Of a stretch of DNA of 64,000 nt, positions 18,294 to 44,783 are shown one piece after another. The DNA is from Reclinomonas americana ATCC 50394 (lineage: Eukaryota): positions 48,982 through 112,981 of the forward strand of contig PS015148.1 of NCBI GenBank assembly GCA_048213135.1, given 5' to 3'. A program made the position numbers and the translations under genes. Position 1 is the stretch's first letter, and the number at the start of each line of letters is the position of its first letter. Under the pieces are notes generated by a model. It saw only the letters and a list, made by a program, of their open reading frames with translations, was not told where the DNA came from and made no database searches.

Positions 18294-20549
18294 TTAGAAC
18301 TTACTTGGACCCCCCATTGCGGCCCCGACGCCCAGGAGAATGGTCACGCCGTAGCCGATGCACACACCCAGCACGAGGTTGGTGATTGCGAAACTGTGGG
18401 ATCTGTGAGTATCGTTGCGCGCCCGCTCTCATGTTCTCCATCGTGCGTACCTCCACACCTTGCTGGCATCCACATTGTCCTTCAGCAACTGCACAAAGTA
18501 ATACGGTTGCGCAATGGGCGCTCGGTTTGACCACTGCTGCGCGATGCTGGTGACGCCGTCGTTGTACATGGCGATATCTTCATCGCTGTGCAGCGGCGAC
18601 GCGGTGAGCTCCGGTCGCCGTGGCAGTGAGAAGAATGACGAAACGCACTTTGCATGGAGGAGACTCGCCGACGCCTCCACCACGGTAGACGATGTGGGAT
18701 GCGTCCACGACTGTTGACACGCAAGGCGCGCCTGTGTGCACGTCTCCTCCGAGCCGGTGGTGTACTGTGCAGTGGATGAGGACGGATTGCAAGCACCTTG
18801 CTTTCACGGCGAACATACCTGCTTGCACACGACGTATGCCTGTTGTGCGAGTGCAGCAAGTCAGAATCAGCAAGCGTGAAGTACCTCGCCCACCCTGGCT
18901 TACACACCGATACTTTGGCGCCTACTTGTGCGTCGCGATCCGACGTGTACAGCGGGGCAACGGCCCTGCGTGAATAGCAGCAAGTGAGCACTAGCAGCAT
19001 GTTGGGCAAGCTTGAATGCTAGCTTGGTTGCCCCAACCAGAATGTGTAGCTGTGCCAACGACAATAAGCAACACTAGGCGAGAAACTCGTTTTCCCCACA
19101 CAACGCCACGCAACAAGGTTGTATCCTCGCTCGTGCCGGTCTCGAGGCACTGTGAGAACGACTGTTCGGCGGCGATGAAGAACCCCGGTTGCAGGTTGAA
19201 CTGGTTTGCCACGTCTATAGAGTGCATTCGGATGCTCAGCTGGACGCATCCACCACCACAGCCACCACCACCACCGCTCACATCTCAACACACCTGCCAG
19301 TCCCAGCTGGCGCACCTGCTCTACGGTTACCGGCGCCCCGTGATCGTACTCACGCCATTGTCGAACCACGGTGTAGTAGCGAAAGTCTATTCACAAATGA
19401 GTGAGTCAAATGTGCAGGCACAGAGAGAGAGAGAGAGAGGCTCTTCCTCCACGCTCAACTGTAACCCACGACGGCACCGACGACGATGAACACAATGCCG
19501 AAACCGGCAAAGAAGACGTACTCCGAGCAGTGAATGGGACGCTGGGGGCCGTTGCCACATAAGCAGCGGTAGCAGAGCCGCACCGTGAGAAACTGGAGGT
19601 AGACAAAGCCGCCTGTGATGCAGTCATCACGGTGTGAGACCACATCGCGTGCGTTATCCTATCCTCTCGCACGACTCACCGACACAGCTGACAAGCACCG
19701 CATTGAGGGTCCCGTTGGTTCTGAGTGGTTTTTCCCCAACAAGTAAGCACACGACTGACAGAGCGAGCTGGTGACATGCAGCACGCAACTTGGCGGCCAG
19801 TGTGAGGCTGAGCGCCAGCAAGCAGAGACTGACGACAAAATACAGCAGCGGCCACAAATAAAGTCGCGCTTGTGAGCCGCACTTTCTTGCACGGCACAGG
19901 CCACGGCGTTTCCGCACAGGCTGCACTCTGTAGTGGTGGGAGGGAGCACGCTGCAGTTCAGAAAGAGAGAGAGAAAGAGGGCAACCAGTGCAGGGTCGAC
20001 GCAACTCGACAGCGACAGGCGGTGGTGCTGTTTTCGTCGGCGAGAAGCTGATGGACAGAAACGACGAGTTAGTTCACCAGCTACGCGAGGTACATCGCTG
20101 TTACTGACGCACATTGGCTTGCCGGCTGTGGGTGGCGGCCTGCGTGCGCAGAGTGAGATGATCCGCACACATGGAAAGTGGTCTTGATTACGATCTCTCG
20201 CAACTGTTTCGTCGGCCTGCAGTGCACAGCAAGTGAGTGAGATGAAGGGGGCGCGAGACTTGGAGCGACGCAACTGTTCCGTGTAAGCTGGCGTCTTCTT
20301 GGCCTCATCCAGACTGTCGCCACACAGTTGTTTGAAAAGATTGCAACACATGTGGGCGAGTGCGCGAGTCACCTGCGCTGCGTCGCCAGGTACGTAGGAG
20401 TGGAGAGCGAGTCCTGACCATGTTGCAGCTCGCCACTGGCATGCAGTGCAACAGTCACCTGCTCGACACGACTGCGCAAGTTGTCCACGGAAAGCATTGG
20501 AGCCAGATCTGCGACGATTTCGTCGACAGTGTGTGCTTGCTGTGCATGC

Positions 20550-20590
<41 letters not shown>

Positions 20591-20765
20591 GTGAGTGGTG
20601 CAGAGTACTATGTGTGAGAGAGACAGGGGGGCACCACGCACCGTGAGACAGTTTTGCAACACAAGCTGTCGGAGCTGTCGTCAAGATATGTCATACAAAC
20701 GGCGAAGGCCGTCGACATGCCACGCGTGCACAGTGATACGCAACAAGCTCGTCGATGTTGACCAT
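18294..20765 (-). CDS. Uncharacterised membrane protein, paralog A: N-terminal helical (wHTH-like) domain, 3 TM, large loop, C-terminal TM
   Basis: About 17 small exons reconstruct MVNIDEL|LRQLVLQNCLT..., LWPLLYFVVSLCLLALSLTLAAK, GGFVYLQFL, VFFAGFGIVFIVVGAVVGY, NQFNLQPGF, YNDGVTSIAQQW, AITNLVLGVCIGYG; colinear homology and shared intron positions with 40962-44783. Confidence 0.75.
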
Positions 20766-21313
20766 GTCTTCTCTCTTCTCTCCAGCGTGTGTGAAAATCG
20801 ATGGTGAAGCAGCAGTCGTTGCGCTGCGGAATTTTGCGCAGCGATGACTTTGACAGCGGACGATTGCAGCGCGTTGTTGTCCTCTCTCTCTTGTCTGCTT
20901 GTTGCGCTGCTGCACTGTAGCGCGCTTATAGCTTCCTCACGCACTCAACACACACACACACACATGCACACACAACATGCACACACATGCACACTGCGCT
21001 TGCATGATGCGTGCGCATGCATATGCGTCATTTACTCTCCTCTGTGATCTGATTGGATTGCCATTGGTTCCCAGCTTGCAGCAGCAGCTGGCACAATGCT
21101 GAGTGGCAACGAATGGCCATGGTCACACTGCGCGCAGAATGGACGCAGCGAACCCGAAAGAATTCGAGACCGTTTTTAAATTTTGCCGCATTGCGATCGA
21201 AACGGTCTTCTCGGAGTGCAGTGATGCCTGACTCGCCCGTCGTAGCACGTTGCTCCACCATTTCGTGGCATTCAGAAGCAGATAAAAACGCTACCGCAAT
21301 GAGTATCACCGGA

Positions 21314-21339
21314 GAGCGCGCGAAATCTGCGCGCGAAAT
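21314..21339. promoter_or_regulatory. Tandem TTTCGCGC (E2F-like) motif upstream of tectonin copy 1, duplicated at 23674-23700
   Basis: gagcgcgcgaaatctgcgcgcgaaat is present upstream of both tectonin copies. Confidence 0.35.
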
Positions 21340-22110
21340 ACAAGGTACGGNNNNNNNNNNNNNNNNNNNNNNNNNNNNNNNNNNNNNNNNNNNNNNNNNN
21401 NNNNNNNNNNNNNNNNNNNNNNNNNNNNNNNNNNNNNNNNNNNNNNNNNNNNNNNNNNNNNNNNNNNNNNNNNNNNNNNNNNNNNNNNNNNNNNNNNNNN
21501 NNNNNNNNNNNNNNNNNNNNNNNNNNNNNNNNNNNNNNNNNNNNNNNNNNNNNNNNNNNNNNNNNNNNNNNNNNNNNNNNNNNNNNNNNNNNNNNNNNNN
21601 NNNNNNNNNNNNNNNNNNNNNNNNNNNNNNNNNNNNNNNNNNNNNNNNNNNNNNNNNNNNNNNNNNNNNNNNNNNNNNNNNNNNNNNNNNNNNNNNNNNN
21701 NNNNNNNNNNNNNNNNNNNNNNNNNNNNNNNNNNNNNNNNNNNNNNNNNNNNNNNNNNNNNNNNNNNNNNNNNNNNNNNNNNNNNNNNNNNNNNNNNNNN
21801 NNNNNNNNNNNNNNNNNNNNNNNNNNNNNNNNNNNNNNNNNNNNNNNNNNNNNNNNNNNNNNNNNNNNNNNNNNNNNNNNNNNNNNNNNNNNNNNNNNNN
21901 NNNNNNNNNNNNNNNNNNNNNNNNNNNNNNNNNNNNNNNNNNNNNNNNNNNNNNNNNNNNNNNNNNNNNNNNNNNNNNNNNNNNNNNNNNNNNNNNNNNN
22001 NNNNNNNNNNNNNNNNNNNNNNNNNNNNNNNNNNNNNNNNNNNNNNNNNNNNNNNNNNNCTCTCTCTCTCTTCTTCGTTCTTCTTCTTCCGTTCCGTCGT
22101 CGTCGTCGTC

Positions 22111-22179
<69 letters not shown>

Positions 22180-22256
22180 ATGATCACTCAATCGCGGTCA
22201 CACTGCCGTCTTTGTCACCCCGATTCACACACTCACCCTCCCTCTCCCGTGCACAG

Positions 22257-23389
22257 CCACTTTGGTGGCCTTGAACAACGCCTACATGACTGGTGTGGCG
22301 GACACCACCTTTGAGCACTCGGTGAGCGACGTGGAGGAGATGCGCGCAGAGCTCGAACTGGACGCTGCCGAGGAAGACTACGGGTGAGTTTCCTCATTCT
22401 CCTCAGATGCTGGACAAGCCCCACTCACCAGCGTCCCTCGCGATCGTGACAGCTTCTACGCCGAGGCTGAAAGCCGCCACGCACGCCGTTGCCGTCATGC
22501 CAAGTGCGACGACGACGACGAGCCGCTGCCTCTTGATTTCCGGTGAGTCTGCAGAGAGATCCTCCCCCGCACAGTCACCTGCTCACATCCCTCATCGCAG
22601 CTGGCAACAGGTCCCTGGCGGTGCCATTGACATCGGCTTGCAGCAGAGGCAACGCAGGACCGCCGCTGCGTGGGTCGTTGGCGTCGATGGAAATCTGTTG
22701 AGTATATGAGTGCATTGCATGTGGTCGACATGAAAGCTGGTGGTGCTGACATACACTTGTCGCTTGCGCGCAGCTACAACTATGTGCACAAATCCGGAAC
22801 ATGGACAGGCTACGACGTCAAGGGCCGCGCGGTGAACATCGCCGTCGCCCCGGACGGCACGCCGTATGCCTCGCTCAACGACAGCAAGCACATCATCATC
22901 TTCGACAAGACAAAGTTGACGTGGAGCGAGCTGCCTGGCATCGACTGGGCCATCGACATTGCCGTCGGCTCCCAGTACATCTGGTATCCACACATGAATG
23001 GCGGCCGCGTGGTGCGCGTCGATCGCAAGACCTTCAAGTTGGAGGTCGATCCCCAGGCCGGCGGCATCATGCGCATCACCGCCGACGCGGACGACAACGT
23101 GTTCGCCATTCGCAATGACAACAGCATCTGGCGCATGGTCAAGTTTGGCCAGTGGCAGCAGATGCCTGGTCTTGGGCTGGACATTGGCGTCGGCTCCAAT
23201 GGCTCGTTGTGGATTGTCGGCATGGACAAGGCATTCTACACGTACGCTCCCGCCGCTGGCGGCTGGATCTGCCTGCCGACGGCGAGAGGCATCCGCGTGT
23301 CGGGTGGACCCGAGGGGGGCCCGTGGCACGTGAACGACAACAAGGAGATCTGGCGCCCGATCTACCCGGCCGACGCAGACGATTACTAA
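22257..23389 (+). CDS. Secreted tectonin (beta-propeller lectin-like) protein, copy 1; first exon in gap
   Basis: Repeats WQQVPGGAIDIG, WSELPGIDWAIDIAVG, WQQMPGLGLDIGVGSNGSLWIVG; near-identical to copy 2. Confidence 0.8.
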
Positions 23390-23803
23390 AACCGAGGCAG
23401 TAAACTTGTCGGGTTTCGTCACTCAGAGAGTGAGGTTGGATTCGTTCACGCTTCGCATGCATTCGTGCTGCCGAATCATGACAACCGCCGAGGTTTATCG
23501 TCCGCTAGCGCCAAAGTATTCCTATATATCTGCTGTTGTTGCAAAAGATCGATGAGATCGTGGTCAAGAAAACACGAAGGCAAAGCGCGCTGAGTTTGGT
23601 TGGGCGAGGGCATGGCGGTGGAGGCGGTGGCGGAGGTGGAGGAGGATGATGAAAGGTAGCGAACGTTTCTCGCCGAGCGCGCGAAATCTGCGCGCGAAAT
23701 CTGTACAAGTACGACCGTTACTTCCCGCCTTCTCTGCGTTCAACTTTATTTCGTCTTTCGTGTGAGAGCAGACTACCTGGTTTTCTCCACTTCGTCATAT
23801 CTT

Positions 23804-24003
23804 ATGAATCGCCTTCTCCTTCTCATCGCCCTCTGTGCTGTGGCCATTGTGGCACTCGTCGGCGTGAACGCCGAGATGGAAACTGACTTCCAACTCGGTG
23901 TGTGGACTCATTTGTGGTTTCGCGCGCTCTCTTTCTCGCTCTTCTTTTCTTTATTTTCCCGCGCGCGCGCGTTCTCTCACTTCCTTTGTGAGTGTGAGAG
24001 TGA

Positions 24004-24039
<36 letters not shown>

Positions 24040-25251
24040 GATCACACTCAATCGCGGTCACACTGCCCTCCTTGTCACCCCGATTCACACACTCACCCTC
24101 CCTCTCCCGTGCACAGCCTCCCTGGCGGCCTTGGGCAACGCCCACATGACTGGTGTGGCGGACACCACCTTCGAGCACACTGTGAGCGACCTGGAGGAGA
24201 TGCGCGCAGAGCTCGAGCTGGACGCTGCCGAGGCAGACTACGGGTGAGTGTGGTTCCCTTTCTTCTCAATTGCCGGACAACTCCCACTCACAGGTTATTT
24301 CCTTCGCAGTTTCTACGCCGAAGCTGAAAGCCGCCACAGACGCCGTTGCCGTCGTGAACAGTGCGAGGACGACGACGAGCCGCTGCCTCTTGATTTCCGG
24401 TGAGTCTGCAGAGAGATCCTCCCCCGCGCAACACCTGCTCACATCCTTCATCGCAGCTGGCAGCAGCTCCCTGGCGGCGCCATTGACATCGGCTTGCAGC
24501 AGAGGCAACGCAGGACCGCCGCTGTGTGGGTCGTTGGCGTCGAAGGCAACATGTTGAGTATACAATCATGAGTGCACTGCATGTGGTCGTCGACATGAAA
24601 AAGGGTGGTGCTGACACGCACTTGTCGCTTGCGCGCAGCTACAACTATGTGCACCAGACCGGATCGTGGACTGGCTATGATGTCAAGGGCCGCGCGGTGA
24701 ACATTGCCGTCGCCCCTTGTGGCACGCCGTACGCCACGCTCAACGACAGCAAGCACATCATCGTCTTCGACAAGAAGAAGCAGACGTGGAGCGAGCTGCC
24801 GGGTGTCGACTGGGCCATCGACATTGCCGTCGGCTCCCAGTACGTCTGGTATCCGCACATGAATGGCGGCCGCGTGGTGCGCGTCGATCGCAAGACCTTC
24901 AAGTTGGAGGTCGATCCCCAGGCCGGTGGCATCATTCGCATCACCGCCGACGCGGACGACAACGTGTTCGCCATTCGCAGTGACAACAGCATCTGGCGTA
25001 TGGTCAAGTTTGGCCAGTGGGAGCAGCTGGTTGGTCTTGGGCTGGACATTGGCGTCGGCTCCAACGGCTCATTGTGGCTTGTCGGCATGGACAAGGCATT
25101 CTACCAGTACGCTCCCGCCATTGGCGGCTGGATCTGCCTGCCGACGGCGAGAGGCATCCGCGTGTCGGGAGGCCCCGAGGGCGGCCCGTGGACCACAAAT
25201 GACGGCAAGCAGATCTGGCGCCCGATCTACCCGCCGAATGCCTCCAGCTGA
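23804..25251 (+). CDS. Secreted tectonin (beta-propeller lectin-like) protein, copy 2
   Basis: Signal peptide MNRLLLLIALCAVAIVALVGVNA, acidic pro-like segment, RHRRRCRR, then about six tectonin-type repeats (W..LPG...DI.VG...W.V); 4 GT-AG introns keep the frame. Confidence 0.82.
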
Positions 25252-25399
25252 AACTGGTGAAGAGTGTGGGAAACCGCGACGCTGCGTTTCAAGAAAATGA
25301 ACGCATGCAAGGAAAACTAACTGCACGCTGCTATACTCTGTTTGTTTCTTCTCCACTTTCGCCGACGTCGGTCAAGTCCTGCATGCACGTGATCTCCGT

Positions 25400-25540
25400 C
25401 TACATACTTGCATCTCCGCCGAGCAGATGAGCACCACTCAAGTACAGCTGGACGAGAGCGGCCGCGACGCCGTGCGCGAAGTCACCGACGTCGACAGTCA
25501 AGTGCATCATCCGCAGTACTTGGTCTTTGAGGTCTGCATC
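25400..25540 (-). CDS. Possible terminal exon of an unidentified gene extending into the gap
   Basis: Acceptor after a CT tract opens DLKDQVLRMMHLTVDVGDFAHGVAAALVQLYLSGAHLLGGDASM*; no family recognised. Confidence 0.3.
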   Translation of the reverse strand, partial: DADLKDQVLRMMHLTVDVGDFAHGVAAALVQLYLSGAHLLGGDASM

Positions 25541-25595
25541 GCAGAGGAAGAGAGAGAGAGAGAGATAGAGATAGTGTGTGTGTGTGAGTGAGTGA

Positions 25596-25628
<33 letters not shown>

Positions 25629-26674
25629 CATGTGTGTGTGAGAGAGAGAGGTTGTCCGTGTAAAGTGCATCGGAGCTCCTCTGCATCTTCGCATTTGCAA
25701 GTTACCCGCATTCACCCCTTACACGCTCTTACACTTGTACAGAACCACGCCTTCCTCCGCAGCCGCGCTCTCCTCTCGCAACGTGGATTCGCCGCAAACA
25801 ACAGCTCATTGCTGGCTGCTGTGCGCCCTCTCCTGCCAGCGCTCAAAGTACGCACACTGCCTCTCTCTCACACACACTCACTGGGACACCCACTCACGCA
25901 CCCCCTGTCTCTATGCGTGTAACCGNNNNNNNNNNNNNNNNNNNNNNNNNNNNNNNNNNNNNNNNNNNNNNNNNNNNNNNNNNNNNNNNNNNNNNNNNNN
26001 NNNNNNNNNNNNNNNNNNNNNNNNNNNNNNNNNNNNNNNNNNNNNNNNNNNNNNNNNNNNNNNNNNNNNNNNNNNNNNNNNNNNNNNNNNNNNNNNNNNN
26101 NNNNNNNNNNNNNNNNNNNNNNNNNNNNNNNNNNNNNNNNNNNNNNNNNNNNNNNNNNNNNNNNNNNNNNNNNNNNNNNNNNNNNNNNNNNNNNNNNNNN
26201 NNNNNNNNNNNNNNNNNNNNNNNNNNNNNNNNNNNNNNNNNNNNNNNNNNNNNNNNNNNNNNNNNNNNNNNNNNNNNNNNNNNNNNNNNNNNNNNNNNNN
26301 NNNNNNNNNNNNNNNNNNNNNNNNNNNNNNNNNNNNNNNNNNNNNNNNNNNNNNNNNNNNNNNNNNNNNNNNNNNNNNNNNNNNNNNNNNNNNNNNNNNN
26401 NNNNNNNNNNNNNNNNNNNNNNNNNNNNNNNNNNNNNNNNNNNNNNNNNNNNNNNNNNNNNNNNNNNNNNNNNNNNNNNNNNNNNNNNNNNNNNNNNNNN
26501 NNNNNNNNNNNNNNNNNNNNNNNNNNNNNNNNNNNNNNNNNNNNNNNNNNNNNNNNNNNNNNNNNNNNNNNNNNNNNNNNNNNNNNNNNNNNNNNNNNNN
26601 NNNNNNNNNNNNNNNNNNNNNNNNNNNNNNNNNNNNNNNNNNNNNNNNNNNNNNNNNNNNNNNNNNNNNNNNNC

Positions 26675-29600
26675 AGTGTCGCTTTGTGATCCTTCGCATG
26701 CAAGTTCTGGAGACACCGCGACTGGTGTTTGTCATGTGGCGCCCGTCGGCCTCTTCCCGCGACGCCTCCACCGAGCTGATTGAGTTTTTCACCAAGCTGG
26801 CCGATGGACATGTGCTGGCGGCCTCGCATCAGGACGAGCTCAATGAGGATGCGCTGCTGGAGGTGCTCAGTCGACCCCCTACTGAGGCGCGGTCGCCCTC
26901 GTCTGCGTCGTCGTCGTTGTCGCCGTCTTCGTTGCTGCCGTGTGCGGTCCCTGAGCGTGCCCTGTCGCCCGTGTCGGCGGCGGTGGCGGCCACGCGCGAG
27001 GAACTGCCGNNNNNNNNNNNNNNNNNNNNCCACCAATGCTGATTACGGAGACAGCCAGTGGCTCGGCGGCGGCGGCTCCGCAGCCGGCGAGCGTGTTTGC
27101 CGACATGGCCACGTCGCCGGCACCTGTGACGCCTGCGGCGCCAAAGCCGCGGGAAAAGTTGCGCGGCAAGACAGGGAAAGAACTGGGAGAGGGGGCAGAC
27201 AACTGACTCTTGTTTCTTTTTCGTCGTCGTGCAGTTCGCTGACCGTCACCGACAACCGCACCGGTCGCACCTACACCATCCCGCTGATCGACGGGCGCTA
27301 CCTGGCCGCCATGTGTCTGAACCAGTTGTCGGACGGTGCTGGCGAGGACGGAGAGGCGCCACCGGTTGTGCTCTTCGATCCGGGCTACATGAACACGGCC
27401 ATTGCGCGCTCCAGCATCTCGTACATTGACGGCGACAAGGGCATTCTGCTGTACCGCGGCTACCGCATCGAAGATTTGGTGGAGCACTGCGATTTCATGG
27501 AGGTGGCGTTCTTGCTGATCTACGGCAAGCTGCCGACGAGGGACGAGCACGCTTCGTGGAGTGATCGGTGTGTGTGTGCGAGAGAGAGAGATGGGAGATC
27601 CGTGTTTCACGATGCTTACACTCCACGTATGTGTGTTGCGCAGTGTCACGCGTCACACGTACCTGCACGAGAATCTCGTGCAGCATTTGAAGACCTTCCG
27701 CTATGATGGTGTGTGTCAACTCAGGCTGAGGGCATTGGGAAGAGACATGCAAATGCTGATTCATGTTGTGCGCAGCTCACCCCATGGGCATGCTCATCAG
27801 CTCACTGTCCGCTCTGTCGACTTTTTACCCCGAGGCCAATCCGGCTTTGCGAGTTGCGTCGCTTCGAATGTCNNNNNNNNNNNNNNNNNNNNNNNNNNNN
27901 NNNNNNNNNNNNNNNNNNNNNNNNNNNNNNNNNNNNNNNNNNNNNNNNNNNNNNNNNNNNNNNNNNNNNNNNNNNNNNNNNNNNNNNNNNNNNNNNNNNN
28001 NNNNNNNNNNNNNNNNNNNNNNNNNNNNNNNNNNNNNNNNNNNNNNNNNNNNNNNNNNNNNNNNNNNNNNNNNNNNNNNNNNNNNNNNNNNNNNNNNNNN
28101 NNNNNNNNNNNNNNNNNNNNNNNNNNNNNNNNNNNNNNNNNNNNNNNNNNNNNNNNNNNNNNNNNNNNNNNNNNNNNNNNNNNNNNNNNNNNNNNNNNNN
28201 NNNNNNNNNNNNNNNNNNNNNNNNNNNNNNNNNNNNNNNNNNNNNNNNNNNNNNNNNNNNNNNNNNNNNNNNNNNNNNNNNNNNNNNNNNNNNNNNNNNN
28301 NNNNNNNNNNNNNNNNNNNNNNNNNNNNNNNNNNNNNNNNNNNNNNNNNNNNNNNNNNNNNNNNNNNNNNNNNNNNNNNNNNNNNNNNNNNNNNNNNNNN
28401 NNNNNNNNNNNNNNNNNNNNNNNNNNNNNNNNNNNNNNNNNNNNNNNNNNNNNNNNNNNNNNNNNNNNNNNNNNNNNNNNNNNNNNNNNNNNNNNNNNNN
28501 NNNNNNNNNNNNNNNNNNNNNNNNNNNNNNNNNNNNNNNNNNNNNNNNNNNNNNNNNNNNNNNNNNNNNNNNNNNNNNNNNNNNNNNNNNNNNNNNNNNN
28601 NNNNNNNNNNNNNNNNNNNNNNNNNNNNNNNNNNNNNNNNNNNNNNNNNNNNNNNNNNNNNNNNNNNNNNNNNNNNNNNNNNNNNNNNNNNNNNNNNNNN
28701 NNNNNNNNNNNNNNNNNNNNNNNNNNNNNNNNNNNNNNNNNNNNNNNNNNNNNNNNNNNNNNNNNNNNNNNNNNNNNNNNNNNNNNNNNNNNNNNNTGTG
28801 TGTGCTGGCGCGTTCTTCTAAACCTCTGTCTTCCGTAGGGCGTTGATATTTACAAGAACCAGACCATCCGCAACAAGCAGTTCTTCCGCTTGCTTGGCAA
28901 GATTATTACGATTGCGGCAGCCACGTTCCGCCATCGCATTGGACGGTTGAGTATTTCTCTCTCTCTCCCTCCCTCCCTCCCTCCCTCCCTCCCTCCCTCC
29001 TTCTCTCCCTTTCTCACTCCCTCCCTTTCTCCCTCCCTTTCTCTTTCCCTCCCTTTCTTCCTCCCTCCCTCCCTTTCTCTCTCTCTCTCTGGAATACTGA
29101 ATGCGCTGTCCCTCACTGCAGGCCGTACAATGAGCCGGCCCCGGGTCTGTCGTACACGGAAAACTTCCTGTACATGCTCGATCGTCTCAACGAAACCAAC
29201 TTCCGTTGCAACCCGACGCTCGTGCGGGCGATTGACGTGCGTGCGGCGTGAACCAAAGCTTGTTATCTCATACTTCATGGCTGCTCACTCGCATGTGACG
29301 AGCAGAAAATCTTCATCTTGCACGCCGATCACGAGATGAACTGCAGCACGGCCGCCATGCGACACGTGTCGTCGTCGGGAGTTGCGTTGCCGACGTTGTG
29401 CTTGTAGATGTTCCTGCATAGCAGCTTGCATGTGGTCTCTCTTCTCTGGCAAGTGCCTTTTGTGGTTGATTCTCTCTCTCTCTCTTTCCTCTCCCTCTCC
29501 CTCCCTCCCTCCCTCCCTTTCGTGTTCTCGCCCAGTTTCCTCCTTTCTCACAACATCCGACACACGCAGGTTGATCCCTACACTGCTGTGGCGTCAGCTG

Positions 29601-30496
29601 CCGGAGCACTGTACGGCCCACTGCATGGTGGCGCCAATGAGGTCTGCATTTTTCCCATTTTGCTCTCCGCATTTCAACGCTGTCTCACCAGCTCCCCCCA
29701 ACCAGGCCGTGGTTCGCATGTTGCAAGAGATCGACAATGAGGAGGCCATCCCGGCCTTTTTGGAGGGCGTCAAGGCCAAGAAGCGCCGTCTCATGGGCTT
29801 CGGCCACCGCATCTACAAGAGCTACGATCCGCGCGCCAAGATGATGAAGCAGGTGGCGGACGAGGTATTCTCCGTCGTCGGCAAGTCCAAGCTCATGCCC
29901 ATTGCACGGGCACTCGAGCAGGCAGTTACGTGAAGCTTTAATTCTCCCCTGTGTCGCAAGCTCTCTTGCTAATGGTGGGCGCAGGCACTCTCGGACGAGT
30001 ACTTTATCTCGCGCAAACTCTGTTGCGACATGCTTGTCACCGCTCTCTTTCTGTTTGTGCGCCTGATGGTTTACGTGTTCTCCGCAGATCCCAATGTCGA
30101 CTTTTACAGTGGCATCATTTTCAACGCCATGGGCTTCCCCACCGACATGTTCCCGGTGCGTTCGCGTGCCTCGCTGACATTGTCGGCCCATGTGCTTATT
30201 TTCTTCGTCGCAGGTGCTGTTTTCCATTCCACGCACCGCCGGCTGGTTGGCGCACTGGGCTGAGGGCCTTGACGACCCGCAGCTGCGCATCTACCGACCG
30301 CGCCAGGTCTCTTCTCGATGCGTGCTTATTTTATGGAGTGTGGTCTTTTGGCTCACACTTGAGAGTTTTGCAGATCTACGACGGCGAAATGGATGTGCCT
30401 TTTGTTCCGATGGACGAGCGCGACAAGGAGGCCGACGTGTTCCTCGATGCGTACTCGACGGGCTACTCGGCTCGTCGCGAGGCTGCGCGCAAGTGA
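26675..30496 (+). CDS. Citrate synthase (peroxisomal/bacterial-like type) with N-terminal ADF-H-like segment and Pro/Ala-rich linker
   Basis: [96 protein letters not shown]; upstream in-phase exon carries RLVFVMWRP...[17 protein letters not shown]. Confidence 0.92.
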
Positions 30497-30627
30497 GCCG
30501 CGTGCCGGAGAAGGTGGAGAGGAGTAAAGTCGTGTGGCTGCGGCGAAAACAACATTTGTGCATTCCATCTCCACTCTCGATCCACCCACTTGTTCTATCG
30601 CTCTCTCCCTCTCCCTCCAATCTCCTC

Positions 30628-31633: not shown

Positions 31634-31665
<32 letters not shown>

Positions 31666-32215: not shown

Positions 32216-32302
<87 letters not shown>

Positions 32303-33948: not shown

Positions 33949-34124
33949 GGAGCCGGCTACCTGTCGAAAATGTCACGGCGCGAGCCAACAGAGTCGTGCG
34001 CCCCCACCGGTGCACACACACGAGTGCGGCGTTTGCGTGTCAGTGAAAACAGCTGTGATACGGCACACGGTACCATCTGCGCACAAACTGTACTACAATA
34101 TGCCTGCTCCGCGTACGCGGGCAC

Positions 34125-35977
34125 TCAGTCTGATTGGAAGAGGCGCGCAGCCGCCATCTCCACATCACCGTTCGTCTCTTGCAGTGCTGAAATGGCGTCC
34201 TCGCGAGAGAATCCCATGTCCATCAGCGTGGCGACAAACTCCTCTCTCGGTGGCTGTGCGCCAAGGTGTGACACACACGCGTGCGGAAAGCGGTGGGGAG
34301 GAAAGGGGGTCGTGCACGCAACTTGTGCTACTGGCGGCGATCGTAGTGGGGGTGGTGGTAGTGGTGGGGCGGCACGGAGAAAGTTGCCGTCGAGCTGCCG
34401 AGTGAAACGATCGCGTGAGGATGAGAAATGGGGGCAGGGAATGAGAACAATGAAGCTCACCATGCCCGGACCGACCGCCACCACCGCAGGTCTTTGCACA
34501 GATGACGGTGATCGCTGTTGGAGACACAGGATGTAAGCAGGTCGACAAGGTTAGTTGCCCCTGCGTTCCACACTCACCATCTCCGACGGTACGCGCAGTG
34601 CATGGCCGTCGATCGGTGCGGGAAACGCGGGTACCCCGCCAGACACTGCATGAAGAGCACAGTGGCATGAGAACGGAGTCTGCGTTCGTCACACGAATAC
34701 CCTCTCTATTTCTCTCCTCACCAACTAGACTGCCACCCGCCTCCGCCGGACCTGCAGGGCTGGCGAGCCACTGCCCGAGGCACTTGTGACAGCACGTGGC
34801 AAGACACGAAGGGAAGCGAAATCGATCGAAGGGAATGAGGCCGGAAAAGTAAATCACGGCGGCCAGCACACCCACAGCGCTGGCGAGGAGACTGGACCAC
34901 AGAGCGGCGCAAGAGAGCTGCGAGGAGGAAGAGGAGGGCGAAGATTGAGAAAGAGGGGAGGGAGAATTGAAGAGAGGAGGCGAAGATGTGCAGCAGAGGG
35001 ACGATAATAAACAACAATGGACTGTGACCAAAGAAGGGGAGAAGCGAAAGAAGAGGAGAAGCGACCCAGAAACACAGACACGTGCGACGCCCACTCACCT
35101 GGAGCGCCAGCAGATAAATGAACGACTTGTCAGAGAGTGATACACCAAGCACGGTGAACGGGTGCATGCGCGGCACATATCTCGCATACGGCACGATGAA
35201 GGCGAAGATCAAGCAGTAGCTGTTCGACAACAACTTCAGCGACAGCACCAGAACATGTCAAATACACACGCATGACGCAACGGCCCTATTGTGGCCACGG
35301 CCTTGGTCGACCTGAAAATGGCCCAGAGCGCCAGCTCCAAGAGAATCACAAAGAGGTGAATGACGAAGATAAAGGCCTGCATGCGTGACAATGTAAGAAT
35401 AGACATGGATCNNNNNNNNNNNNNNNNNNNNNNNNNNNNNNNNNNNNNNNNNNNNNNNNNNNNNNNNNNNNNNNNNNNNNNNNNNNNNNNNNNNNNNNNN
35501 NNNNNNNNNNNNNNNNNNNNNNNNNNNNNNNNNNNNNNNNNNNNNNNNNNNNNNNNNNNNNNNNNNNNNNNNNNNNNNNNNNNNNNNNNNNNNNNNNNNN
35601 NNNNNNNNNNNNNNNNNNNNNNNNNNNNNNNNNNNNNNNNNNNNNNNNNNNNNNNNNNNNNNNNNNNNNNNNNNNNNNNNNNNNNNNNNNNNNNNNNNNN
35701 NNNNNNNNNNNNNNNNNNNNNNNNNNNNNNNNNNNNNNNNNNNNNNNNNNNNNNNNNNNNNNNNNNNNNNNNNNNNNNNNNNNNNNNNNNNNNNNNNNNN
35801 NNNNNNNNNNNNNNNNNNNNNNNNNNNNNNNNNNNNNNNNNNNNNNNNNNNNNNNNNNNNNNNNNNNNNNNNNNNNNNNNNNNNNNNNNNNNNNNNNNNN
35901 NNNNNNNNNNNNNNNNNNNNNNNNNNNNNNNNNNNNNNNNNNNNNNNNNNNNNNNNNNNNNNNNNNNNNNNNNNNNN

Positions 35978-36056
<79 letters not shown>

Positions 36057-36135
36057 TCCCTCTGTGTGTGCGTGCGTGTGCGTGGAGGCACACTCAACGA
36101 AAGCCCGTTGGCCCTGCTGCGTGAAAGTTCAGCAT
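34125..36135 (-). CDS. UBAC2: Rhomboid-like pseudoprotease with C-terminal UBA domain (UBAC2/Dsc2-like)
   Basis: MLNFHAAGPTGF start, GPYCLIFAF, FTVLGVSLSDKSFIYLLALQ, hydrophobic segments, C-terminal VATLMDMGFSREDAISALQETNGDVEMAAARL; middle exons in gap. Confidence 0.8.
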
Positions 36136-36886
36136 GGGTGGCCCCTACTGCTGCTGCTGCTTCTGCTTCGCACACAAAGAGAGAGCTCACACGCGAGAGA
36201 CAAGAGCGCGTGCGTGAGTGTACGCGTGTGCGCCGGAGACAATCGCACTCGCGCTGATGTGATTGGTCATGTTCACGAGAGTCTGCGAAAACTGTGCGAC
36301 TGTGAGTGCAAACACAAAAGCGAGCAAGGGAGGTGTTTCCCAAAGCTCTTATGCAGGAAGCCACCAAGTCAACACACCAGTCGGAGGCCTGGGCATCGCG
36401 CAAAGCGTGAACTTTAAATTTCGAATTCACCACATATGGATACCTGTACCGCGATTGGCGCGCATGCAGTTGCCGAGCATGCTGTGGCGTTGCTCCGGCT
36501 CCTGCACACGTTCCAGTACTAGTGGCAGAAGTGGCCACGGACCCGTGCTTCAGATCTGGGTGCTGCGACAATTGCAACCCCGGCGACGAAAAACAGTTGC
36601 CGATCTGCGCCTTGGCCTCTCGCAGATGTTGAGAAGCGACTGCTGCATTGCAAGCACGAGGAGGCCAAGACGGACAGAGTGCTCCTTCTGTAAACCGTAC
36701 ACACGCGCACACATGCATGTCCGCTTTTGACGCGGAAAGTGTGCGAAAAGTGTGCGAAAGTGAGTGCAACCACGAAAGCACACCACGAGCACGCTTCTCA
36801 AAGCCCACGCACACAGAACCACGACGTCAAACGCGCGCCACCAAAGTCACCACGAATTTTCCTCCTCACTCACTCCTCACTCACAA

Positions 36887-37081
36887 ATGGCCGATCGCCG
36901 CGGAGGTCGCCGCGACTACGGCTCCGCAGTGCGACCCAACAGCGGCAGCGGGCCTCTCATGCTGCGTCGTGCCAACCCCGGCGACGAGGAGAACGATCTC
37001 GAGCAGCAAGCACAGCAGCAGGCGCCTCTCGGAGATGACGAGCAGCGACTGTTGCGCGGAGCTGCTGGTGTTGACGATGAC

Positions 37082-37112
<31 letters not shown>

Positions 37113-40100
37113 GTGGTGTGGGTGGAGGAGGTGATGACGATGATGATGAGGACGATGAGGCGACGGAGAAGATTCTGGATGGGGATGCGGATAAGGAGGA
37201 TCGCGCGTTGATGAGGTGTGTGTGAGAGAGGGAGTGAGAGTGCGTGTGTGTGTGTGTGAGGGAGAGAGAGGAGAGCAGCTTGAGCGCAGACGGTCGGTGA
37301 TGCATTGTCTCTTTCTTTGTGCGCACACACGCGCTGTTGTGTGGATACGCGTGTGTGTGTGCTCTTGGAGAGGAGTGGGAATCGTGTGCTGGTCGCATGC
37401 ATGCAATGTGTGTTTGTGTGTGCCCTCGCACTCACGATTCTCTGCTCTCTTGCAGTCAAAACCCGTTCGTGGTGCAAAAGGAAAAGCAACGGTTTCGCTC
37501 CATCCGCCTCATGTACCTCACCACCTTTCTCTCCTCGACCGGTGCGTTGATTGCTCAGCCACCCCTCGCTCTTCTCTCTCACTCTCACATCTCTCTATCT
37601 TTTTTCCAGGCTTCTCCATGGTGCTGCCGACGTTGTGGCCGTACCTCGAGAAGCAGGGCGGCACCAAGTCGTTCCTCGGCTACGTGGTGGCCAGCTACAG
37701 TCTCGGGCAGCTGATTGGCAGTGTGATTTTCGGCACGTGGTCCAATCATGTGCGGCGGATGATCCCACTCTGCATCTCCACCGCCATCACCGTCGTCGGG
37801 AACGTGCTCTACTGCTTCACGGGCCAGTTCCCGTTCTCGCACTCGTGGAGTTTGTTCGCTTCGCGGCTCATTGTTGGCCTCGGTGCCGGCAACGTGGCCG
37901 TGGCGCGCGCATACGTCGCGTCGGCCACCACGCTGAAGGAGCGCACAGGTTCCATGGCGTTCATGAGCGCGGCGCAGGGTCTCGGTTTCATTCTGGGGCC
38001 AGGTGAGGACGAACAGTGAGAGCGTGTGTTGTGCGTGACGCGTCGACCTCACTCTGCGTCGCGAGCGCAGCCATTGGTGCCGCATTCTCACCGCTCTCCA
38101 GCGGCGCCAACTTTGGTCCGTTCGAGTTCGACTACCTCACGGCGCCGGGCTACTTTTCGGCCGTCTGCGAAGCCTTCAACCTCGTCCTGCTCATGTTGTT
38201 CTTCAGCGAGCACAAGGTGCACGATGCCGAGGATGCCAGCGAGGCTGACGCTTTGTTGGCGGCACCGCAGACAGGTGGGTTGAGGTGGCGGAGGACTCTT
38301 TTTTCTTCCACCTCTTTATTCCTGCGCTTACCTCCTTCCCTATGTCTCCATCACCTGCAGGTGGTACCAAGCACGCCGGTCGCAAGGGTGCCATCAACAC
38401 CGGGGGCGACGCCGACTACGAGTCCAACTCGGACGATGAGCGCTCCGAGGCCGTCAGTGTCATTCTGGACCCGTCGAGTTTGCACCGCTCTGTCACCAGC
38501 AGCATGCGTGAGCGCCTGCGACGCGAGGCCTCTGGCTTACCGATTTCGCCTGTCGACCGACTCGGTGTTTCGGTGACCATTATCAACTTTTTCAGCGTCA
38601 TTTTCGTGTTTGCCATCTTTGAGACGTTGCGTCACGTTTGTCACGCGTCTTCCCTCTTCTCCCACTGCCTTCTCTCACTCTTCCGCGCAGTATTCTCACT
38701 CCGCTCACCATGGACGAGTACGATTGGACGAAGCAGCAGGCAGACCTGTACTGCGGCATCCTGCTCGGTGCTGTGGGCCTCATCGCCGTGTTTGTGTTCA
38801 TGTCGGTCAAGATGGTGGCCAAGTGGGCCGGCGAGCGCCAGCTCATGCTTGCCNNNNNNNNNNNNNNNNNNNNNNNNNNNNNNNNNNNNNNNNNNNNNNN
38901 NNNNNNNNNNNNNNNNNNNNNNNNNNNNNNNNNNNNNNNNNNNNNNNNNNNNNNNNNNNNNNNNNNNNNNNNNNNNNNNNNNNNNNNNNNNNNNNNNNNN
39001 NNNNNNNNNNNNNNNNNNNNNNNNNNNNNNNNNNNNNNNNNNNNNNNNNNNNNNNNNNNNNNNNNNNNNNNNNNNNNNNNNNNNNNNNNNNNNNNNNNNN
39101 NNNNNNNNNNNNNNNNNNNNNNNNNNNNNNNNNNNNNNNNNNNNNNNNNNNNNNNNNNNNNNNNNNNNNNNNNNNNNNNNNNNNNNNNNNNNNNNNNNNN
39201 NNNNNNNNNNNNNNNNNNNNNNNNNNNNNNNNNNNNNNNNNNNNNNNNNNNNNNNNNNNNNNNNNNNNNNNNNNNNNNNNNNNNNNNNGGCTTTGTCGTT
39301 ATGGTCGGCTGCTTCGTGCTGACCATTCCGTTCCGTGGATCGACTCCCACGCCGTGCAGCGACAATCCCTGGTGCGACTCGGTTCCGCAACTCAACCTGG
39401 CACAGTTCATTTGCTCCGCCTTTTTGATCTCGGTCGGCTACCCGCTGGCGTCGGTCATGATTTACACTCTCTTTTCGAAGATGCTGGGTCCGTCGCCGCA
39501 GGGCCTGTGGATGGGCATTCTCACGGGCTGCGGCTCCGCGGCGCGCATGATTGGCCCGATTTACGTCACCAATGTGTACGAAAAGTACGGTCCACGCTGG
39601 GCCTTTGGCGGCGTCGCGGGCATTGTGGCCTTGTCCGCCCTGCTGACCATCATCTTCTGGCGCCGCTTCAAGGAGCACCCGGATTCCTTGAAGAAGCGAC
39701 TGGACAAGGAGAAGGCGTTGGTGGGCAGTCGGAAGCGTACGGCTGGCAGCGGAGTCCGGAGGTCCGGTGTCGCCGTGGGCATGATTGCCGGCGGCGGCAG
39801 TCCGGGCAANNNNNNNNNNNNNNNNNNNNNNNNNNNNNNNNNNNNNNNNNNNNNNNNNNNNNNNNNNNNNNNNNNNNNNNNNNNNNNNNNNNNNNNNNNN
39901 NNNNNNNNNNNNNNNNNNNNNNNNNNNNNNNNNNNNNNNNNNNNNNNNNNNNNNNNNNNNNNNNNNNNNNNNNNNNNNNNNNNNNNNNNNNNNNNNNNNN
40001 NNNNNNNNNNNNNNNNNNNNNNNNNNNNNNNNNNNNNNNNNNNNNNNNNNNNNNNNNNNNNNNNNNNNNNNNNNNNNNNNNNNNNNNNNNNNNNNNNNNN

Positions 40101-40765
40101 NNNNNNNNNNNNNNNNNNNNNNNNNNNNNNNNNNNNNNNNNNNNNNNNNNNNNNNNNNNNNNNNNNNNNNNNNNNNNNNNNNNNNNNNNNNNNNNNNNNN
40201 NNNNNNNNNNNNNNNNNNNNNNNNNNNNNNNNNNNNNNNNNNNNNNNNNNNNNNNNNNNNNNNNNNNNNNNNNNNNNNNNNNNNNNNNNNNNNNNNNNNN
40301 NNNNNNNNNNNNNNNNNNNNNNNNNNNNNNNNNNNNNNNNNNNNNNNNNNNNNNNNNNNNNNNNNNNNNNNNNNNNNNNNNNNNNNNNNNNNNNNNNNNN
40401 NNNNNNNNNNNNNNNNNNNNNNNNNNNNNNNNNNNNNNNNNNNNNNNNNNNNNNNNNNNNNNNNNNNNNNNNNNNNNNNNNNNNNNNNNNNNNNNNNNNN
40501 NNNNNNNNNNNNNNNNNNNNNNNNNNNNNNNNNNNNNNNNNNNNNNNNNNNNNNNNNNNNNNNNNNNNNNNNNNNNNNNNNNNNNNNNNNNNNNNNNNNN
40601 NNNNNNNNNNNNNNNNNNNNNNNNNNNNNNNNNNNNNNNNNNNNNNNNNNNNNNNNNNNNNNNNNNNNNNNNNNNNNNNNNNNNNNNNNNNNNNNNNNNN
40701 NNNNNNNTACGGCTGTCAACAGCGGCGCCACGGCAAGCAACGGCAACAGCAGGTCACGGTTGTGA
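36887..40765 (+). CDS. MFSD8: MFS transporter, MFSD8/CLN7-like (3' end across a gap, uncertain)
   Basis: FRSIRLMYLTTFL, GFSMVLPTLWPYL, FLGYVVASYSLGQL, SRLIVGLGAGNVAVARAY, QGLGFILGP, LFSKMLGPSPQGLWMG...GSAARMIGP; acidic dileucine-type motifs (DEQRLL, EADALL). Confidence 0.88.
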
Positions 40766-40961
40766 GAGGTGCTTGTCTGCACGTTGTGCTCTCTCTTTCT
40801 CTTTATATGTTGGTCTGTTTTGGCAATGCATGAACGCGTGAATATTGATTGTTGGATGAGCGCCAGACTGTTGAATAACTTTAATAGACTGGCGGTGAAA
40901 GCGATTGCCACTGTCGGAGACGTTGGAGGGAAATACACACACAAAGTGAGTGAGTGGCTCA

Positions 40962-43900
40962 CTAGGCATTTTGTGCAATGAGGCAGTAAACTGCCACGGC
41001 GCCAAAGATCCACACAAGTCCGTAGCCGACGCACGAGCCAATGACGACGTTGCGAATGGCCCATCTGTAACGAGCGATGAGTACGAGAGCGACAAACAGG
41101 AGCAAAAAAACAATCAATGAGACGCAACGACCACACGTCGGAGGAGGTCACGCTGTCGGTGAGCAGCTGGTAGAACTGGGGAGGATTCACCGGCTGTCGT
41201 CCCCACTGCGTCTGCACGCTCGCCACACCGGCGTTGAAGACAGAGTAATCGTACGAGCTGTGCGCCGAGAGAGGGAGAAGGAGAGAGTGAGGAGGAGCAA
41301 AGAATAGTTTCCACACGCAATGACAGCAGAAGGGGCAAGAAACTCATCATCAACACATGCATGAGAATGAGAAGGGGCAGAGCAAAGCACACTAGAGAGG
41401 TGTGCACATGAACTAATGCGAGTGAGTGAGACACACAAGAAAGGGAGGAGCGCAACAACCACAGAAGGGTCAGGAAAACAAATTCGAGCGAGGGAGACAC
41501 ACAAGTGAGGGACAACAGCTGAAGGGTCAAGGATTAACAAATGCAAGAGAGAGAGAGAGAGAGGAGGAGCAGAGCACAGTTCCCGTGCGCAGCACAAAGC
41601 ACAGGAGTGAGGTGTGCACAATGAACAAATGCGAGGGAGGAATCATACAAGTGAGGGAGAAGGAGCTACGCGCAACAACAGCAGAAGGGCCAAGTTGCTC
41701 ATCATTAGCAAATGCATGAGAGGGATGAGGAACAAAGCACTGTTCCCGCGCGCAGTACAAAGCACAAGAGTAAGAAATGCACAATTTGAACTATTGAGAG
41801 CGCGGAAGTATAAACAGGTGCGCAGTTAAAGAGAGATGCGTTTCTTCCTGACTATCTCACACGCGCACATTCCCTCCCCCCATTCTCTGGTATTCATACT
41901 CACTCGGCCTTGAACAAGCTCACTCCGGCCTCCACAATGGTGTTGGAGCGCGGCGAGCCCCAGTTGAGTCGGCACCCACTGCCGGTGAAGCCGCAATTGT
42001 CGCTCGATGTGCCCAAGTTCTGCACGCACACGATGAAACGAGATCAGGCTCACAGTGATTCAGCGTGCGCCGAGGTGCCATGAAGTACTCACCACACAAG
42101 TGACATAGGCCTGCACACAAGATACAGTGAGTAAATGGAGAACAAGACACGAAATGGTCTGCTCGCAAACGCAACGGGGACAGGGACATTGGCATCCATG
42201 TCAGCTTGACTCGAATACAATGGCGAAACACACCTGTTCATGGAGGTACAGGTGAGGGACAGCGAAGCCACATGCCAAGCTGTTCTTTCAAAGACCGCGA
42301 ACCAGAACCAATAACTGCGACAATTAAGGTTTCAGTGAGCCAAGCAAAGCAGGTGGGAGTTGCAACAGCTTGTCACGAACTATCGCGTGCCCTTGGACGA
42401 GTACGAGTACTCCTGGCGCGTGTAGAATTGGCCAAAGGGGACCACGAAACCGCGCTGCAGGTTGAATTCATTGGCAGCACCTGCAAACGGAGACGTCAGC
42501 GTGTCAAGATATGTGCGGTTTCCAACACAATGGCATGACTTACCAGACGCGTATGCGCTGCGTGCCGTCTCCACAGACACTGTTGCGCCATTGTTGTAAA
42601 TTTTCCACTTTTGTGTTGTCACATAATACTCGAAATCTGCGCACGCGCGAGAGAGACGTGAGAGATGGCGTTGAAACGTGATCAGTGCAGCGTAAAGACA
42701 CAACTGTAGGCGCACACGCAGCCAACAACAATCCAAACAATGAGGCAACCGATGGCGAACATGAGTTCGCCAAAGGTGCTGTTCGAGCACATGAGACGGA
42801 TGTAAAGAACGGCGAAATAAACAAAGAAGCCTGTGGAACGAAACACGCAGTGAGTAACGACGGAGACAGGAGCACGGCGGTTTGATGGATAGCAAGGTAC
42901 CGGCGGTGCAGAACACGATGACTGCAATGCGACCAGACGATCTGCATCACACAGAGGCGTGAGACACGAGGTGCAAGTAGCGTGTTGAGCACGGAAGCGC
43001 AACTTGGCACCAGCCACCAGGCACAGCGCTTGCAAGGCAACTGAAAAGAGGAACCAACCAATGCAGGCGACCAACATATGCATGCCTTTGCCGTCGTAGG
43101 AGCAGTTGAGTCCCAGACGGCGTGACCACTGACGTTGGATCACACTGCGACAAGTGACGCAGGATGGGTTGAGCGTGAGAAGACACGACAAGAGAGAATG
43201 ATAGTGGGAGAGTCTGTACGCAACTAGGACGGCTGGCGCTGCGGACGCGCAGCGTTGTTCATCTCCACTGCAGATGGATCGGCGGGGCGATTGTTGTTGG
43301 GCGAATACGTGTTGCCAATGACCACAGTGGTCGGCGAGAGGACGATCGCTGGAGACTCCACGTCGACGGCTCTGCGAGAGAGAGGGCGCAATGAGGAACG
43401 GGGGAAGAAGGGGGAAGAGAAGGAGAAGAAGATATAGGAGGAGGAGGAGGAGGAGGAGGAGGAGGAGGAGGAGGAGGAGNNNNNNNNNNNNNNNNNNNNN
43501 NNNNNNNNNNNNNNNNNNNNNNNNNNNNNNNNNNNNNNNNNNNNNNNNNNNNNNNNNNNNNNNNNNNNNNNNNNNNNNNNNNNNNNNNNNNNNNNNNNNN
43601 NNNNNNNNNNNNNNNNNNNNNNNNNNNNNNNNNNNNNNNNNNNNNNNNNNNNNNNNNNNNNNNNNNNNNNNNNNNNNNNNNNNNNNNNNNNNNNNNNNNN
43701 NNNNNNNNNNNNNNNNNNNNNNNNNNNNNNNNNNNNNNNNNNNNNNNNNNNNNNNNNNNNNNNNNNNNNNNNNNNNNNNNNNNNNNNNNNNNNNNNNNNN
43801 NNNNNNNNNNNNNNNNNNNNNNNNNNNNNNNNNNNNNNNNNNNNNNNNNNNNNNNNNNGAGGAGGAGGAGGAGGAGGATAAGAAGATATAGGAGGAGCAG

Positions 43901-44783
43901 GAGGAGGAGGAGGAGGAGAAGAAGAAGAAGAAGGAGGAGGAGGAAGAAGAACAAGAAAAGAAGGAGAAGGAGAAGAGGAAGAAGAGGAAGAAGATGTAGA
44001 AGAAGAAGAAGATGCAGAAGAAGAAGAAGAAGGAAGAAGAAGAAGAAGAAGAAGAAGAAGAAGAAGAACAACAACAACAACAACAAGAAGAAGAAGAAGA
44101 CGAAGAAGAAGAACGACAAGAAGAAGAACAAGAAGAAGAAGAAGAAGGAGTGAGGACAGAGAGAGAGAAGAGAATTCGCGCCCGCCTTCACTCAGCCAGA
44201 CAGCAAGCCCTCATGACTGGCATTGAGCGTCTCCCACATCTGAAAAGAGAAACGAACATGCACGACAATCTCGGAACTTTTAGAACACACTGAACACACA
44301 ATGAAATGAGAGAGAGAGAGAGAGGAGTGGATGTGTGCGTGAGTGAGAGAGAGGCAGTGAGGGAGAAAGTGCCAGTGCGTGAGTCCGCGCGCGCGTCAAT
44401 ACAACACACACTGTTTCCCCCTCTCTTTATCTTCGTCTCTCTCTCTTCCTTTCTCTCTCCCTCACACGCAACTCGACAGTCTCCTCATCCAACACCGTGT
44501 GATACACCGACACCATGTGCGAGTCATACACACGCCGCAGACGACCGCCTTCCATCAGTCGCGACACTGCGTCCTCAATGCGCTTGCGCTGCACATTGAG
44601 ACCGGCCAATTGCTCCACCAGTTGATCCTCGGTCTTGCCTGCGCCACCCTTCAGGCACGCAGCGAGAATGTGCTCATTCACCTGTGCGCAAACAAACAGA
44701 GAGAGAGAGAGCGTGAGATACGTACACTCAGGTGCGCGCGCACACGCAAGGTGCGCAACGAGCTCGTCGGAGGCCTCTGCCAT
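40962..44783 (-). CDS. Uncharacterised membrane protein, paralog B: N-terminal wHTH-like domain, 3 TM, large loop, C-terminal TM
   Basis: MAEASDEL|VNEHILAACLKGGAGKTEDQLVEQLAGLNVQRKRIEDAVSRLMEGGRLRRV, IGWFLFSVALQALCLVAGAK, FFVYFAVL, MFAIGCLIVWIVVGCVCAY, NEFNLQRGF, FNAGVASVQTQW, AIRNVVIGSCVGYG; homologous to 18294-20765; one gap inside a predicted intron. Confidence 0.75.

Follow-up and report, generated by a model that had tools for sequence, protein, structure and literature searches.

Tetraspan scaffolds organize membrane microdomains, adhesion and fusion; the tetraspanins carry a CCG motif together with further conserved cysteines in their large loop and possess a short cytosolic N-terminus. 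In bacterial ToxR/CadC proteins a basic OmpR-type winged helix is joined to one transmembrane segment (TM), and the LEM2/MAN1/Heh proteins of the inner nuclear membrane have an N-terminal LEM/HeH domain, two TMs, a small luminal loop and a C-terminal winged-helix MSC domain that recruits ESCRT-III. The one-component route is known from bacteria (ToxR/CadC); to our knowledge it has not been described for a eukaryotic tetraspan protein, and a literature search revealed no combination of a winged helix with a tetraspan architecture. The present analysis concerns two minus-strand genes, A and B, in a stretch of 64,000 nucleotides (nt) of Reclinomonas americana ATCC 50394 (assembly GCA_048213135.1, contig PS015148.1, positions 48,982 to 112,981); this whole stretch is termed the window, and positions are counted from its first letter. 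Gene A extends from 20765 to 18294 (12 exons, 442 amino acids (aa)) and gene B, ~20 kb apart, from 44783 to 40962 (11 exons, 433 aa), both reading from ATG to stop after in-silico splicing. Their predicted products are tentatively interpreted as a lineage-restricted membrane protein family with a tetraspan-like topology.

For the gene models, frame-compatible GT/GC..AG junctions were enumerated, the sequence was read and the exon ends were then set by coordinate; the final models contain GT..AG junctions only (see Table 1). All 21 introns of A and B are of the form GT..YAG, 18 of them measuring 50-102 nt and the remaining three 445, 646 and 1328 nt. The G+C content by codon position amounts to 0.60/0.45/0.70 in A and 0.55/0.46/0.67 in B, and the third-position values of 0.70 and 0.67 versus ~0.45 at the second position represent a typical coding signature. 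As far as genomic sequence tells, A and B are real, intron-rich genes with complete spliceable open reading frames (ORFs). Every peptide quoted in the earlier note on this DNA lies on the minus strand in its assigned place, and the start and stop coordinates agree exactly; in contrast, the exon ends it had set after 'LAAK' in A and 'AGAK' in B do not correspond to splice sites: no phase-compatible acceptor is present, and the exon continues into a Cys-containing loop of 33-55 aa. In A, the sole acceptor preceding the TM2 frame requires a donor of phase 1, namely GTGAGT at 19680/19679; in B, the frame runs on uninterrupted past 'AGAK'.

Some details of the models deserve mention. The splice donors start with GTT in 12 of 21 cases (GTTGCG six times, GTTCG[CT] three times, GTTGAG, GTTGTG and GTTGGG once each) and otherwise with GTG or GTA; T at donor position +3, as in these 12 introns of A and B, is unusual for U2-type introns. 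The 12-nt microexon, which is flanked by introns of 65-72 nt on either side and encodes an aromatic motif of the Y-x-F-W type, was included by virtue of paralogue conservation only, and the frame would be kept if it were skipped. A further in-frame intron of 45 nt may reside inside exon 9 of gene A. The second intron of gene B (1328 nt) contains a run of 379 N at 43480-43858 between low-complexity AGG/GAG/AGA repeats; an exon may be hidden in this run, the model being phase-consistent without one.

The proposal that A and B are paralogues assembled from tiny exons and similar from end to end was borne out by blastp, which aligned the two proteins over their full length (177 bits, E 3e-55, 140/460 identical residues, 30%); in the global MAFFT alignment 144 of 398 aligned columns (36%) are identical. 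With either protein as a tblastn query against the unprocessed sequence of the window, exons of the other gene were retrieved independently of that gene's model (E 1.7e-8, 4.9e-7, 4.3e-13 and 5.6e-6). By these sequence comparisons, the likeness is far beyond chance. The shared intron positions reported in the earlier note were likewise recovered: eight introns, including those at the microexon, coincide in phase and in their place in the alignment, as a ninth probably does (column 360 in A, column 339 in B, both phase 0, in a gapped region), and only two introns of A and one of B are private. Homologous exons of identical length comprise 93, 100, 12 and 116 nt. With both models as tblastn queries, no third copy was found in the 64-kb window, so that the designation as a two-member family holds for the window, which is its scope; tblastx of the flanks of A versus those of B revealed no co-duplicated neighbours. 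Tentatively, and as one part of the explanation favoured below, A and B would be old, dispersed paralogues of a lineage-restricted gene.

Both predicted proteins are built alike: an acidic domain of ~75 aa at the N-terminus is followed by a basic linker, TM1, a loop, a weak TM2, TM3, a large loop, TM4 and a tail. TM1 is preceded by 98-99 residues (A/B), and the linker before it (eight Lys/Arg, no Asp/Glu and an isoelectric point (pI) of 11.7 in A; four Lys/Arg in B) suggests a cytosolic N-terminus. Kyte-Doolittle hydropathy revealed three clear peaks and a marginal one (1.5-1.7): TM1, TM2, TM3 and TM4 reach 2.42, 1.72, 2.43 and 2.17 in A and 2.25, 1.51, 2.74 and 2.11 in B. The first loop (TM1-TM2) comprises 33 aa in A and 55 aa in B, the TM2-TM3 loop 15 and 7 aa, and the C-terminal tail 6 and 4 aa, respectively. 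The large Cys-containing loop that the earlier note had postulated between TM3 and TM4 is present in both proteins (204 aa with five Cys in A, 176 aa with four Cys in B) and is rich in aromatic residues (27 and 30 Trp, Tyr and Phe, respectively). The soluble N-terminal domain, the hydrophobic segments and the last TM named in that note are likewise supported; with TM2 marginal, the proteins have three to four membrane segments. Seven Cys residues are aligned between A and B, i.e. one in the N-terminal domain, two in the first loop, one in the TM2-TM3 loop, two in the large loop and one in TM4. Sequence identity is highest across TM2-TM3 (48%, 22/46), reaches 39-41% at both ends of the large loop and amounts to 31% in the N-terminal domain.

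On the basis of this architecture, we tentatively favor, with somewhat less than even confidence, the interpretation of the A and B proteins as a lineage-restricted scaffold or receptor-like adaptor of tetraspan topology, whose binding loop would be exoplasmic and whose acidic docking module would be cytosolic. According to hydropathy and charge, the ~75 aa acidic and mostly helical N-terminal domain and the basic linker would face the cytosol, and TM1, the marginal TM2, TM3 and TM4 would form a tetraspan-like topology with N- and C-termini inside. The first loop (33-55 aa) and the aromatic-rich, Cys-containing second loop (176-204 aa) would then be exoplasmic, the latter possibly binding a luminal or extracellular partner, whereas the acidic N-terminal module may dock a cytosolic protein and not DNA; juxtamembrane and loop Cys residues are candidate acylation or disulfide sites. 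Several points weigh against this interpretation. The gene models derive from in-silico splicing of genomic DNA, the searches and fold predictions covered unspliced stretches, and neither of two AlphaFold2 runs nor Foldseek established the N-terminal fold. Moreover, the marginal TM2 makes a protein with three TMs and a cytosolic large loop possible, the positive-inside counts around TM2-TM4 are indecisive, just two Cys of the large loop are firmly aligned, and the function is deduced from the architecture.

Among the other explanations, a three-pass topology survives best, although it is considered unlikely. In such a protein TM2 would not span the membrane, the Cys-dense region of 70-85 aa between TM1 and TM3 would be exoplasmic, the aromatic-rich domain of 176-204 aa and the N-terminal domain would both be cytosolic, and the C-terminus would lie outside. 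The hydropathy of TM2 (1.72 in A and 1.51 in B versus 2.1-2.7 for the other three segments) is compatible with this arrangement, as is the distribution of Cys, with seven in 67 residues (A) and seven in 80 residues (B) between TM1 and TM3 compared with five in 204 and four in 176 residues of the large loop. Evidence against it comes from the TM2-TM3 block, in which conservation is strongest and whose short connection of 7-15 aa is of the kind typically seen in helical hairpins, and from the conservation of two Cys in the large loop.

The search for relatives was performed, as were the fold predictions, with unspliced exon-sized queries of at most 146 aa (exon 3 of B). Within this limit no family was recognized, in line with the earlier note, which had called the family unrecognised. 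In Pfam, 18 exon-sized pieces (from 9 of the 12 exons of A and 6 of the 11 of B) matched no family above the cut-off, while exon-sized pieces of neighbouring genes, used as a control, matched in 6/10 and 7/10 cases. Sequence profile searches of the PDB with the N-terminal, TM1-TM3 and C-terminal loop alignments gave unrelated chains at best (E 0.51). The word-indexed protein searches covered the length class 'longer' (the classes 'near' and 'shorter' were left out) and yielded 222 candidates for exons 10-11 of A read through and 7245 for the TM1-TM3 alignment, none with E <= 0.01, and 532 for the N-terminal alignment, none with E <= 1. An exhaustive hmmsearch with the C-terminal loop alignment (a profile of 104 positions, of which 26 are intron-derived and 78 truly coding) returned none of 1,835,955,588 proteins at E <= 0.001, and the ESM Atlas gave no usable match for exon 3 of B (recognition 1222). 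The shortness of the queries (<=146 aa; 78 coding columns in the exhaustive search) weakens these blank results. With this qualification, A and B are apparently orphan and lineage-restricted by sequence.

A metagenome search with a single-protein query reduced 117 pattern matches to one locus (L001), which was rejected as a chance match to the searched 8-mer. The locus is AT-rich (32% GC) and contains at 2458-2634 an ORF of 58 aa with a 12-residue stretch common to exon 11 of A; the match extends over 26 aa around the 8-mer, the other exons being unmatched.

It is rather improbable that A and B are highly divergent tetraspanins to which a long cytosolic domain was added at the N-terminus. In favor of this explanation, the predicted parts follow one another as in tetraspanins, with a small loop before TM2 and a very short one after it, a large Cys-containing loop between TM3 and TM4 and a short tail, and juxtamembrane Cys are present as well. 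On the other hand, the tetraspanin profile gave no hmmscan match at E up to 10 with exon 3 of B (TM1-TM3), exons 4 and 5 of A or the TM4 exons of both genes, neither A nor B contains a CC dipeptide and hence a CCG motif, and the large loop of 176-204 aa and the N-terminus of 98-99 aa differ from typical tetraspanin sizes.

Still less probable is an artefact of the gene models. The N-terminal exons would then be a small gene in their own right, duplicated alongside that for the membrane protein; alternatively, A, B or both would be pseudogenes. The reliance of the models on genomic sequence leaves room for this explanation, as do the N-terminal exon frames, which if unspliced meet a stop at once (A) or 15 codons past the last complete exon codon (B), and the long, N-containing second intron of gene B. 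However, gene A has no ATG between the acceptor of intron 3 and residue 370, so its membrane part lacks a start codon of its own and needs the upstream N-terminal exons. In addition, exon order, strand and the phase-2 junction between N-terminal and TM exons are conserved in both copies, and a phase-0 intron directly follows the M-x(3-4)-D-E-L start of both proteins; taken together, these features favor a single transcript. The spliced frames are furthermore intact across 442 and 433 codons and display the coding signature at third positions.

The N-terminal domain had been read in the earlier note as a winged helix, which the results do not establish. AlphaFold2 models of exon 2 of B (69 aa) consist of three helices and no strands, at low confidence and with shallow alignments (mean predicted local distance difference test score 66.1 with a two-row alignment and 70.2 alone); Foldseek of the better model versus the PDB gave no match at E up to 10. 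Weak hints, two in number, lead to PaaX and DsrD, both small winged-helix proteins. The best Pfam match of the N-terminal exon of B was PaaX at a sub-threshold level (E 0.094, 13.4 bits versus a cut-off of 24.8), with neither PaaX nor any other Pfam match for the N-terminal exons of A. In the ESM Atlas, exon 2 of B was protein-like (recognition 3051), and its 30 nearest clusters scored up to 0.92; 21 of them are without a family and nine carry DsrD, with 153-154 of 256 features shared compared with 170 typical of true family members. NCBIfam and PHROGs returned only chance-level rows for the N-terminal exons of both genes. The winged-helix fold is unproven, yet not disproved. Both paralogues have an acidic domain (pI 5.04 each; net charge -4.2 in A and -5.2 in B), which speaks for a role in protein binding and against the binding of specific DNA sequences.

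It is very unlikely that A and B encode DNA-binding factors with a winged helix tethered to the membrane, which would couple an outer sensor loop to transcription either in the manner of ToxR/CadC or after proteolytic release as in SREBP: the soluble N-terminal domain beside a basic, nuclear localization signal-like linker and the PaaX and DsrD leads speak for it, whereas the acidity of the domain, the poor conservation of the putative recognition helix between the paralogues (31% over the domain), the absence of a winged helix from both low-confidence AlphaFold2 models and the lack of any Pfam DNA-binding family above the cut-off speak against it. The same acidity and missing winged-helix prediction leave little likelihood for a eukaryotic receptor-like variant with one-component signalling, in which a ligand bound to the large outer loop of a four-pass protein would govern whether the N-terminal domain is released or active. 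The analogy to ToxR/CadC drawn in the earlier note is disfavoured as well, given the acidic domain, the three to four membrane segments versus one, and no Pfam match to a basic OmpR/PhoB-type DNA-binding domain on the scanned exons.

The surrounding window is eukaryotic and intron-dense, with coding parts of ~56-60% GC and 14 N runs totalling 7482 N; Rfam and tRNA scans of it found nothing. Exon-sized ORFs of neighbouring genes matched the Pfam families protein kinase, TPR, aldo/keto reductase (two), LMBR1, Ras, Tectonin (two), citrate synthase, UBA and MFS transporter (see Table 1 for selected features). Numerous (TC)n/(GA)n tracts occur across the window.

Table 1. Exons of genes A and B (spliced models) and other features of the window
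Feature	Position	Strand	Remarks
A exon 1	20745..20765	-	Start codon and first 7 residues, to conserved D-E-L; first ATG of the open frame; following phase-0 intron common to B
A exon 2	20642..20674	-	11 aa, first helix of N-terminal domain; following intron private to A
A exon 3	20373..20539	-	Remainder of acidic N-terminal domain; intron read-through meets a stop right after the donor
A exon 4	19680..19927	-	Basic juxtamembrane stretch, TM1, first loop; frame without ATG upstream of TM1
A exon 5	19460..19612	-	Weak TM2, short Cys-rich loop, TM3
A exon 6	19294..19386	-	93 nt, large loop begins; length and phases as B exon 4
A exon 7	19115..19214	-	100 nt, conserved N-x-F-N-L-Q motif; length and phases as B exon 5
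A exon 8	19038..19049	-	12-nt microexon between CAG and GT; conserved in B
A exon 9	18815..18965	-	Middle of large loop; ~24 aa longer than B exons 7+8
A exon 10	18649..18764	-	Two conserved Cys; 116 nt, the length of B exon 9
A exon 11	18451..18585	-	Conserved end of large loop
A exon 12	18294..18393	-	TM4, 6-aa tail, stop; second of two candidate acceptors taken for its match to B
B exon 1	44760..44783	-	Start codon and first 8 residues, to D-E-L
B exon 2	44473..44681	-	Entire acidic N-terminal domain, 69 aa; used for AlphaFold2
B exon 3	42705..43144	-	Counterpart of A exons 4+5: juxtamembrane stretch, TM1, Cys-rich loop of 55 aa, weak TM2 and TM3
B exon 4	42544..42636	-	93 nt
B exon 5	42381..42480	-	100 nt
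B exon 6	42303..42314	-	12-nt microexon
B exon 7	42176..42233	-	Spliced model
B exon 8	42093..42110	-	18 nt; preceding intron private to B
B exon 9	41904..42019	-	116 nt, two conserved Cys
B exon 10	41129..41257	-	Conserved end of large loop
B exon 11	40962..41064	-	TM4, 4-aa tail, stop
Aldo/keto reductase gene fragments	9196-9555, 12019-12534	-	~3 kb apart; probably another local duplication
Open frame	13029-15083	-	685 aa; Q runs and repeated acidic/proline motifs; no Pfam family
Tectonin ORFs (beta-propeller lectin)	22631-23386, 24487-25248	+	Tandem, very similar; Pfam E 1.6e-8 and 9.3e-5 (second under curated cut-off)
Citrate synthase exons	27032-27703, 29340-29930	+	Interrupted by N runs; Pfam E 4.8e-19 and 1.7e-21
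MFS transporter exons	37195-38016, 39289-39807	+	Convergent on the 3' end of gene B; two N runs within
Tandem repeats	49930-50397, 52478-52740		Units of 63/125 nt and 64/125 nt; adjoining LMBR1-like gene (52271-53359)

If the models are right, A and B would constitute a lineage-restricted family so far without annotation, in which a folded cytosolic module is attached to a membrane core of tetraspan-like topology, and the built-in docking domain might offer a simple means of linking a binding loop on the outside to a partner within the cell. Genes composed of exons of 12-150 nt, such as these, are missed when annotation relies on ORFs. Since protist genomes commonly encode orphan multi-pass membrane proteins, A and B are for the present of modest interest, which a full-length fold, a function, a wider distribution or a phenotype would raise.

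Compared with the described systems, the A and B proteins share with ToxR/CadC the succession of a small cytosolic N-terminal domain, membrane and outer domain; they differ in the number of TMs, the acidity of the domain and the lack of a Pfam match, and are encoded by eukaryotic intron-rich genes. The N-terminal domain resembles that of PaaX (PF07848) and DsrD (PF08679) in its size of ~70 aa, in addition to the sub-threshold PaaX match and the DsrD cluster at 0.92 for exon 2 of B; in contrast, both leads lie under the membership thresholds, paralogue A gave no match, and these families consist of prokaryotic soluble proteins. No LEM/HeH or MSC domain was matched by Pfam on any scanned exon, and the C-terminal tail of A and B has a mere 4-6 residues; what they would have in common with LEM2/MAN1/Heh is the combination of a polytopic membrane protein with a small fold of the nucleic-acid-binding type that serves to recruit proteins, together with a basic membrane-adjacent linker. 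With regard to the tetraspanins (PF00335), the size of the large loop, a first loop of 33-55 aa with Cys and an N-terminal region of 98-99 aa with a folded domain set A and B apart, whereas four hydrophobic segments, a short connection between TM2 and TM3, a largest loop with conserved Cys between TM3 and TM4, a very short C-terminal tail and juxtamembrane Cys are features that both have in common.

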